Source of the DNA: Escherichia phage Pu-Krd-SF1
Direction: 5' to 3' (one strand)
Sequence record: PQ249395
DNA: 64,000 nt
The position numbers were made by a program, and so were the translations under genes. This document shows positions 46,262 to 46,672 of this stretch, piece after piece (within the stretch, counting starts at the first letter, position 1; the number at the start of each line of letters is the position of its first letter). The notes under the pieces are model-generated. The model had not been told where the DNA came from, made no database searches, and saw only the letters and a list, made by a program, of their open reading frames with translations.

Positions 46262-46647
46262 ATGGAACTTATTACAGAATTATTTGACGGCGCTTCGGCG
46301 CCGGTTGTTAACTTAAATCCTAAGCATAAAATACTACAAATTTTTGCTATTCAAGCCGGCGAAGGAAGCGTGCTTCCTGGATTTAGATTTTGTACATACA
46401 CCTCTGGCGGTGATACAGATAAAACGTTAAACCAGGCGACAAAATGATGCATATCGTAATGATAGGTGTTAATGAGAAACTATCATTAGTTAAGCTTAAA
46501 AACTTGGGTGGAAATCCAATTGGTGTCATTAATGCTGTTTTTGATACTGCTCTTCAAACAATGAAACAGTATAAAATCGACGCATGCCTATTACGCGTAC
46601 TAAAAAGTTCAAAATGTAGTTTACAAGTCCCTCGTGTTGTGTTATAG
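46262..46647 (+). pseudogene. frameshifted partial paralogue of the alt 5' end (two ORFs, 61 + 67 aa)
   Basis: ORF1 MELITELFDGASAPVVNLNPKHK...FRFCTYTSGGDT and ORF2 MMHIVMIGV...TALQTMKQYKIDACLLRVLKS align to Alt residues ~1-60 and ~64-135; a frame break lies at the AAAATGATGCA junction. Confidence 0.45.
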
Positions 46648-46672
46648 TAGTCTTACTGACATAACATGAGGA
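46619..46672 (+). promoter_or_regulatory. early promoter cassette (near-identical copy of 33531..33584)
   Basis: 53/54 nt identical to the alc-upstream cassette; GTTTAC -35, TATAGT -10, GAGGA SD. Confidence 0.5.

Follow-up and report, generated by a model that had tools for sequence, protein, structure and literature searches.

The stretch directly downstream of the resident alt gene, positions 46262 to 46619, is in our judgment a nonfunctional remnant of a second alt-like ADP-ribosyltransferase gene (alt2) that underwent a deletion and a frameshift (probability about 0.93). Positions refer throughout to the window, the whole 64,000-nt stretch of DNA from Escherichia phage Pu-Krd-SF1 (record PQ249395) that was analyzed. 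This reading draws on the homology of the stretch to Alt, on an intact ortholog in related phages, on the deletion junction and the frameshift, and on additional lesions and relaxed constraint among related alleles.

The two short open reading frames (ORFs) of the remnant, alt.-1 and alt.-2, were described previously as paralogous to alt (Nolan et al. 2006, PMC1524935). In the excerpts available, the GenBank records word their origin in two ways. The T4 RefSeq note on alt.-1 and alt.-2 gives the earlier reading, a duplication of the first part of alt “into which a stop codon and new...”, while a later note in the T4T record states that [quoted passage not shown] The origin of the two ORFs is thus already known from the T4T record, and the present analysis reproduces that reading. 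Added here are the exact junction (a 9-bp repeat, with 1,699 bp lost), the site of the frameshift, an allelic series, a contrast in selection, and the recognition of the neighboring promoter cassette as a bystander.

Genomic context of alt.-1 and alt.-2 and their similarity to Alt

The gene order of the window is gene 30 (DNA ligase), alt.1, alt, the two short ORFs, and a 96-aa ORF, with genes 54 and 48 on the opposite strand (Table 1). T4 has the same order, and the short ORFs are annotated in T4T and T4 as alt.-1, alt.-2, and alt.-3; in these phages, in F25, and in others, alt.-1 and alt.-2 likewise occupy the interval between alt and alt.-3, immediately behind alt and on the same strand. 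About 500 Tequatrovirus records match positions 46200 to 46700, with 100% identity in Escherichia phages Pu-Krd-SF5, SF6, and SF7 and 98.4% nucleotide identity in T4 and T4T. Judged by its sequence, the window is that of a T4-type phage, and the two short ORFs are alt.-1 and alt.-2 of T4. The T4 genes (T4p199 and T4p198, respectively) share with those of the window their position, lengths (61 and 67 aa), junction, and frameshift; the window differs by a few substitutions, of which P25L and E35G in alt.-1 were private to it in this sample. The families phrog_23015 and phrog_15247 were matched end to end by alt.-1 and alt.-2 (as example stretches, Alt.-1 holds LFDGASAPVVNLNPK and Alt.-2 holds LSLVK and NLGGNPIGVINAVFDTALQTMK). 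Three minus-strand ORFs (46351 to 46452, 46383 to 46529, and 46529 to 46678), annotated in none of the inspected records, were deemed spurious. A search of positions 44000 to 47100 against Rfam returned nothing credible, both matches falling far below the gathering scores.

Table 1. Features at the alt locus of the window and at the second copy of the promoter cassette
Feature	Position	Strand	Evidence
Second 54-nt cassette copy, between the rnlA (gene 63) stop and the alc start	33531-33584	+	53/54 match; T6 has a copy too
alt (resident, alt1-type ADP-ribosyltransferase, 682-683 aa)	44207/44210-46258	+	ORF; Pfam PF03496 ADPrib_exo_Tox at residues 374-614 (E = 1.3e-33); phrog_802; annotated alt in T4T and T4
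alt.-1 ORF, 61 aa: former alt2 codons 1-52 plus 9 out-of-frame codons	46262-46447	+	phrog_23015 (E = 2e-42); phrog_802 positions 2-61; 95-97% nt identity to the 5′ end of T6 alt2
Frameshift site, A4 run versus A5 in intact alt2 (1-nt deletion)	46421-46424	+	Alignments; in 14/16 sampled deletion alleles; absent from AV121, SG1, and 9/9 intact alleles
alt.-2 ORF, 67 aa: alt2 codons 62-116, restarted at an internal Met-Met, plus 12 junction-derived codons to a TAG inside the -10 hexamer	46444-46647	+	phrog_15247 (E = 9e-50); phrog_802 positions 64-120
Deletion junction, single surviving copy of CTAAAAAGT	46600-46608	+	blastn against T6
Last 11 nt of the former alt2, TCAAAATGTAG, with the original TAG stop at 46617-46619	46609-46619	+	Collinear with T6 (L004) 6548-6558, the end of the annotated alt2 CDS
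Native alt.-3 early promoter and leader cassette (predicted): -35 GTTTACA 46619-46625, TG-extended -10 TATAGT 46643-46648, SD GAGGA 46668-46672	46619-46672	+	Best promoter-like match in the region, 10/12 with TG; annotated promoter at the same position in phage Lutter
alt.-3, 96 aa, DUF5498, gene served by the promoter cassette	46680-46970	+	PF17602 (E = 1.4e-64); annotated in T4T and T4
Bidirectional terminator hairpin between alt.-3 and gene 54	46975-46996		Hairpin scan; annotated terminator in Lutter, SP1, and G2540-3

The initial annotation of this DNA, made from the sequence alone, had reported two ORFs after alt whose products align with the Alt N terminus. Both are present, and their similarity to Alt is far beyond chance (blastp, E ~1e-21): alt.-1 aligned with residues 1 to 62 of the window Alt (55% identity, E = 6e-21) and alt.-2 with residues 63 to 117 (62% identity, E = 2e-21). 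The range first given for alt.-1 (residues ~1 to 60) agrees with this result, whereas that given for alt.-2 (~64 to 135) is too long, the similarity reaching only residue ~117. At the nucleotide level, the remnant and the resident alt were 66.7% identical over 336 nt (blastn, E = 4e-19); Alt-type similarity stops at 46608. Together, alt.-1 and alt.-2 keep an Alt-like N-terminal region of ~120 aa with a MELITE-type N terminus (blastp against Alt; phrog_802 positions 2 to 120). The ORFs overlap in an ATGA motif (TGA at 46445 to 46447, ATG at 46444 to 46446). Neither alt.-1, alt.-2, nor the 128-aa ORF of phage AV121 matched Pfam, which contains no model for the Alt N-terminal region, and PF03496 was absent from all three.

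A full-length alt2 is present in most related phages

When the frame-corrected 118-aa product of the remnant was used as a tblastn query, most Tequatroviruses gave an uninterrupted match inside a gene annotated as an Alt-like ADP-ribosyltransferase. In T6, a full-length alt (697 aa; alt1) is followed in tandem by a second alt-like gene (685 aa, YP_010067344; alt2) and then by an alt.-3 homolog. The two T6 paralogs share 40% protein identity; with the window Alt, T6 alt1 shares 70% and T6 alt2 41% identity, and PF03496 is found in both paralogs (Alt, Table 1; T6 alt2, residues 416 to 620, E = 1.6e-19). A full 2,058-nt alt2 occupies the same position in T6, T2, HY01, slur02, Sf22, teqskov, phage 107, and two IMG/VR contigs. 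The first 116 codons and the last 11 nt of alt2 from T6, T2, and most Tequatroviruses are orthologous to the remnant, and the neighbors are shared (alt upstream, alt.-3 and its promoter downstream). Relative to a T6-type alt2, the window lacks 1,699 bp that include the PF03496 catalytic domain and carries a frameshift.

These comparisons bear on the source of the remnant. It had first been read as a tandem partial duplication of the 5′ end of the resident alt, with recombination at a repeated cassette carrying an early promoter having determined where it ends. Several features invite that reading: the copy begins 4 nt past alt, and 28 nt at its start are identical to those of alt, a 53/54 repeat of the promoter cassette lies 10 nt past the end of the Alt similarity, recombination at promoter cassettes (PeSL) is documented in T4-type phages (PMC2839356, PMC4122927), and an excerpt of the older T4 RefSeq note speaks of “a duplication of the first part of gene alt.” However, the remnant is 95 to 97% identical at the nucleotide level to the first 348 nt of the full-length T6 alt2 but only 67% identical to the resident alt, and it is therefore not a partial duplicate of the resident gene but the leftover of an old, separate paralog. 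The description of a frameshifted copy related to the Alt N terminus thus stands, whereas its derivation from the resident alt does not; the copy instead comprises the 5′ 348 nt of a distinct, old, full-length alt2 (~40% protein identity to alt1). The comparison with T6 and T2 already refutes a duplication of the resident alt, and we give it very little chance; the junction and the cassette, described below, also speak against it.

An alt2-type N terminus at ≥80% identity was found in ~486 records of the phage collection (tblastn), and ~12 records (60 to 80% identity band), including ECML-134, were without an alt2-type 5′ end. The one-alt state of T4 is the minority state: in ~80% of the Tequatroviruses sequenced, genes for two full Alt-type enzymes are present, a point of relevance for studies of phage ADP-ribosylation.

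Other variation was seen in the alt genes themselves. ECML-134 (L005, 4501 to 6561) carries a single chimeric alt, the first ~450 nt of which are 97 to 99% identical to T6 alt1 and the rest 90 to 100% identical to T6 alt2. Such a chimera is the expected product of unequal crossing-over between tandem paralogs and would represent a second route to collapse of the two-gene locus. The resident alt of the window (44210 to 46258) is a mosaic relative to T6 alt1 (L004, 2404 to 4497), with 91 to 98% identity in the 5′ 700 nt, 86 to 92% in the last ~200 nt, and 41 to 78% in the central part (nt 700 to 1900), which suggests that the central part of Alt is hypervariable or exchanged among T-even phages. 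In G2540-3 (L021, 1 to 397), the resident alt is annotated as two ORFs, a long one and then one of 327 nt; alt1 may truly be disrupted, or the split may stem from a sequencing error. In the former case, G2540-3 would have no intact Alt-type enzyme.

The missing part of alt2 was flanked by a 9-bp direct repeat

Alignment of window positions 46100 to 47000 with T6 by blastn gave two collinear blocks (46100 to 46608, corresponding to T6 4333 to 4848, and 46600 to 47000, corresponding to T6 6539 to 6939) that overlap by exactly 9 nt, CTAAAAAGT. T6 (L004) has two copies of this 9-mer, one at 4840 to 4848 (alt2 codons 114 to 116, encoding LKS) and one at 6539 to 6547 (20 nt before the gene end), which form a direct repeat that is not extendable at either side; the 1,699 bp missing from the window lie between them. 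As 1,699 is not divisible by 3, the reading frame of the stump continues into SKCSLQVPRVVL and ends at a TAG that lies within the -10 hexamer of the downstream promoter. Between the junction and the promoter cassette, the final 11 nt of alt2 are still in place, stop codon included, and the junction itself lies inside coding sequence, neither of which is expected if a duplication of the resident alt had ended by recombination at the cassette.

The window and T4T have the same junction CTAAAAAGT and A4 run, as do 12 further alleles of the sample. Across the phage collection, a query spanning the junction (46555 to 46660) was covered to ≥80% in 89 of 485 matching records. Among the records below 80%, the match started at query position 46 or later (window 46600 onward) in 32 of the 32 matches listed, a spread sample of ~396, which indicates that the 3′ end of alt2 and the cassette are contiguous in those listed.

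As read from the junction, which looks like a signature of recombination or slippage between short direct repeats, either microhomology-mediated recombination or replication slippage could account for the loss. We propose that a 1,699-bp deletion between the two 9-bp direct repeats occurred in the lineage of T4 and this phage; it would have removed the central and catalytic part of alt2 and left a 128-codon stump, which is still one ORF in AV121. Kilobase deletions between microhomologies of 6 to 10 bp have been reported in T4 (Srikant, Guegler and Laub 2022, PMC9391042). Those deletions and the one described here share a short direct repeat flanking the loss (6 to 10 bp there, 9 bp here), the retention of one repeat copy, the kilobase scale, and a nonessential gene as the target. 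In contrast to the reported deletions, which arose in the laboratory under selection on genome size, the alt2 deletion is a natural, fixed polymorphism whose mechanism is deduced only from the junction.

The repeat itself varies among intact genes. The perfect CTAAAAAGT repeat is carried by T6, T2, teqskov, and L007, whereas in five other loci with intact alt2 (L022, L023, L024, L027, and L006) the left 9-mer is CTAAAGAGT rather than CTAAAAAGT, so that the microhomology there is imperfect.

A single-nucleotide deletion breaks the remnant into two ORFs

The frame was initially thought to break at the AAAATGATGCA junction. The actual lesion is a 1-nt deletion ~20 nt farther upstream, in the A-run at 46421 to 46424, where T6 reads ...AATAAAAACG and the window ...GAT-AAAACG (in a wider alignment, GATACAAATAAAAACG in T6 and GATACAGAT-AAAACG in the window). 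The -1 frame continues for 9 codons (DKTLNQATK, the last 9 residues of alt.-1) to the TGA of AAAATGATG, and the original frame resumes at an internal Met-Met as alt.-2. The ATGA overlap arises because the -1 frame ends at the TGA within ATGATG; it results from the shift and is not itself the lesion. A later loss of 1 nt from the A-run would thus have split the 128-codon stump into alt.-1 and alt.-2. The frameshift allele was found in at least 71 phage records (≥80% identity to a 24-aa frameshift-specific peptide by tblastn), a lower bound obtained from identity bands, as coverage did not separate the alleles (ungapped extension).

A length change of 1 nt in a homopolymer run is a classic site of error, and both AV121 and SG1 read through the frameshift site in frame. 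The shift could on these grounds be a sequencing or assembly error, or a site of programmed frameshifting, with the locus really encoding one 128-aa protein. Yet the A4 allele recurs in at least 71 independent phage records and in 14 of the 16 sampled deletion alleles, among them those of T4, T4T, and IMG/VR contigs, which were sequenced independently; A4 followed by CG forms no recognized slippery heptamer; and a single 128-aa product would still be without the catalytic domain. We regard an error or a programmed shift as scarcely credible and retain the reading of a genuine frameshift in a deleted gene.

The deletion occurs without the frameshift in AV121 and SG1, and the frameshift occurs in no intact allele, a distribution that fits a deletion first and a frameshift second, the order also given in the T4T note. 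This explanation assumes a single origin of the deletion. The AV121 stump shares several synonymous variants with intact alleles; this could mean that the 9-bp repeats gave rise to the same deletion more than once, or that AV121 arose by recombination. A change of codon 6 from GAA to TAA (equivalent to window 46277; L003, L011, L018, L019, and L020) was observed on both frameshifted (Lutter, SNUABM01, JEP6, and IME537) and unframeshifted (SG1) backgrounds, which implies either recombination within the 160 nt between the sites or recurrent mutation.

The remnant accumulates lesions under relaxed constraint

The first 348 nt were compared among 16 deletion alleles and 9 intact alleles, picked by hand from the phage collection; two alignment artefacts in F25 were removed before private variants were counted. 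An IMG/VR scan with the alt.-3 protein yielded 5 loci, too few for statistics. AV121 carries the deletion only and is annotated with one 128-aa ORF. The -1 shift (nt 160) was present in 14 of the 16 deletion alleles, the exceptions being AV121 and SG1, and the codon 6 change noted above creates a stop (E6 to stop) in 5 of the 16 (Lutter, SG1, SNUABM01, JEP6, and IME537). IME537 has a second -1 shift at nt 278 that cuts alt.-2 to 39 aa, and F25 has a -1 shift in the junction A-run that changes the alt.-2 C terminus. The allelic series, from deletion only to frameshift to nonsense and further frameshifts, quantifies neutral decay.

Variants private to the deletion alleles comprised 13 nonsynonymous and 5 synonymous changes (dN/dS ~0.71; binomial p = 0.34 against the neutral site ratio of 273:75), compared with 2 nonsynonymous and 16 synonymous changes private to the intact alleles (dN/dS ~0.03; Fisher p = 5e-4 for the contrast), in a test that uses site counts without a phylogeny-aware model on 25 alleles, whose “private” classes T-even recombination may distort. 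Purifying selection on the remnant coding sequence was thus not detected in these alleles (13:5, with nonsense and extra frameshift alleles among them), and the counts are near neutral. In time-resolved omics of T4, the Alt.-1 and Alt.-2 proteins were not detected, and their RNA was present and assigned to the class “middle” (PMC9697503, Table S2). Taken together, the lesions, the near-neutral dN/dS, and the protein nondetection in T4 support neutral drift of the remnant as a decaying pseudogene. Its transcription persists because of its placement between alt and alt.-3.

Of the two fates raised in the initial annotation, a decaying pseudogene is accordingly the most likely; a source of small capsid-targeted peptides is disfavored by the same evidence. 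A more general case for function deserves consideration. alt.-1 and/or alt.-2 (or the 128-aa stump) could be small proteins with a function, such as peptides resembling the Alt N terminus that still reach the prohead core and are injected or that modulate Alt packaging, expressed by translational coupling at the ATGA overlap. A 7-residue N-terminal propeptide is removed through gp21 from Alt, which is itself packaged (PMC9026906); the remnant keeps the N terminus MELITELFD, whose MELITE motif is similar to the propeptide and gp21 cleavage context of Alt. In most deletion alleles the ORFs remain open, the alt2 Shine-Dalgarno sequence (AAGGA) and start codon are kept, the region is transcribed (PMC9697503), and PHROGs holds both alt.-1 and alt.-2 as families. 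Small proteins also easily escape shotgun proteomics, so nondetection is weak evidence. Nevertheless, alt.-1 is lost to the E6 stop in 5 of 16 alleles, IME537 has a truncated alt.-2 and F25 one with a changed C terminus, and dN/dS is ~0.7 in the remnant but 0.03 for the same codons of intact alt2. Neither protein was seen in the T4 proteome time course, and ~80% of relatives have the full gene instead. We therefore consider function improbable. One specific form of it would have the Alt2 N-terminal stump (alt.-1, or the 128-aa form of AV121-type phages) translated, loaded into the core via its Alt-type N terminus, and injected, or competing with Alt for core sites, as a small packaged peptide; this is slightly less probable again.

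We favor the pseudogene reading, under which the locus would be a textbook case of a tandem paralog lost via a microhomology deletion and then decaying further, albeit one of little wider biological weight. For annotation, alt.-1 and alt.-2 are better marked as pseudogene fragments than as “ADP-ribosyltransferase.”

The repeated promoter cassette is a bystander

The initial annotation noted a 54-nt block after the remnant that is nearly identical to a block upstream of alc, and this proved correct: positions 46619 to 46672 and 33531 to 33584 are identical at 53 of 54 positions, a match seen in none of 100 shuffles. The repeat is exactly 54 nt long and runs from the -35 element to the Shine-Dalgarno sequence, and no further copies were found in the 64-kb window at ≤3 mismatches, giving two in all. 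The cassette next to the remnant starts at the G of the alt2 stop codon. It contains a predicted sigma-70-type early promoter (TTTACA-17-TATAGT with TG, 10/12), the 17-nt spacer including the TG, and its GAGGA lies 7 nt before the alt.-3 ATG. In T4, both alt.-3 and alc are early in RNA and protein (PMC9697503, Table S2).

The further suggestion that recombination at this cassette set the end of the copy did not hold. The breakpoint is the 9-bp microhomology at 46600 to 46608, 10 nt upstream of the cassette, and the last 11 nt of alt2 remain between the two. The same cassette follows an intact alt2 in T6 (4 differences), L006, and L007, and in L010 it is identical to that of the window; moreover, positions 46600 to 46660, which hold the -35 to -10 part, are 100% identical in many records without the deletion junction. 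Because the cassette also follows undeleted alt2 genes, it was not what fixed the end of the remnant. The two-copy cassette thus predates the alt2 deletion and is independent of it, a bystander rather than an end-setter.

Two other roles of the cassette were considered and rejected. One, a gene conversion linked to the deletion and involving the cassettes of alc and alt.-3, is contradicted by the exact window variant after intact alt2 in L010 and by the many records identical over 46600 to 46660. An origin of the boundary in a promoter-early stem-loop (PeSL) was rejected because the repeat has no stem-loop and the breakpoint lies outside the cassette. PeSLs are mobile regulatory cassettes of T4-type phages at which recombination is documented (PMC2839356, PMC4122927). 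The window resembles them in having a repeated early-promoter block (TTTACA-N17-TA..T type) beside a variable, nonessential locus, but it differs in that neither copy has an adjacent terminator stem-loop, the breakpoint is not inside the cassette, and only two copies occur in the 64-kb window. A scan found no terminator-like plus-strand hairpin beside the copy at 46619, and none was apparent by eye in the flank of the copy at 33531.

The genes alc and alt.-3, 13 kb apart, share a 54-nt block from -35 to Shine-Dalgarno sequence that goes far beyond what the T4 early-promoter consensus needs. Shared regulation or occasional gene conversion may underlie these near-identical leaders; in T6, the alc-side copy matches the phage's own alt.-3 copy at 49 of 54 positions.

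Features downstream of the remnant

alt.-3 encodes a full-length DUF5498 protein (PF17602, E = 1e-64; phrog_1739) that is conserved whether the neighboring alt2 is intact or deleted and that is expressed early in T4. The terminator hairpin at 46975 to 46996 exists in two forms that differ solely by an inverted loop, that is, a hairpin-flip polymorphism, the distribution of which is unrelated to the alt2 deletion. The form GGGGACC-GAAA-GGTCCCC is carried by the window, AV121, ECML-134, and L007, and the form GGGGACC-TTTC-GGTCCCC by T4T, T6, and most others.
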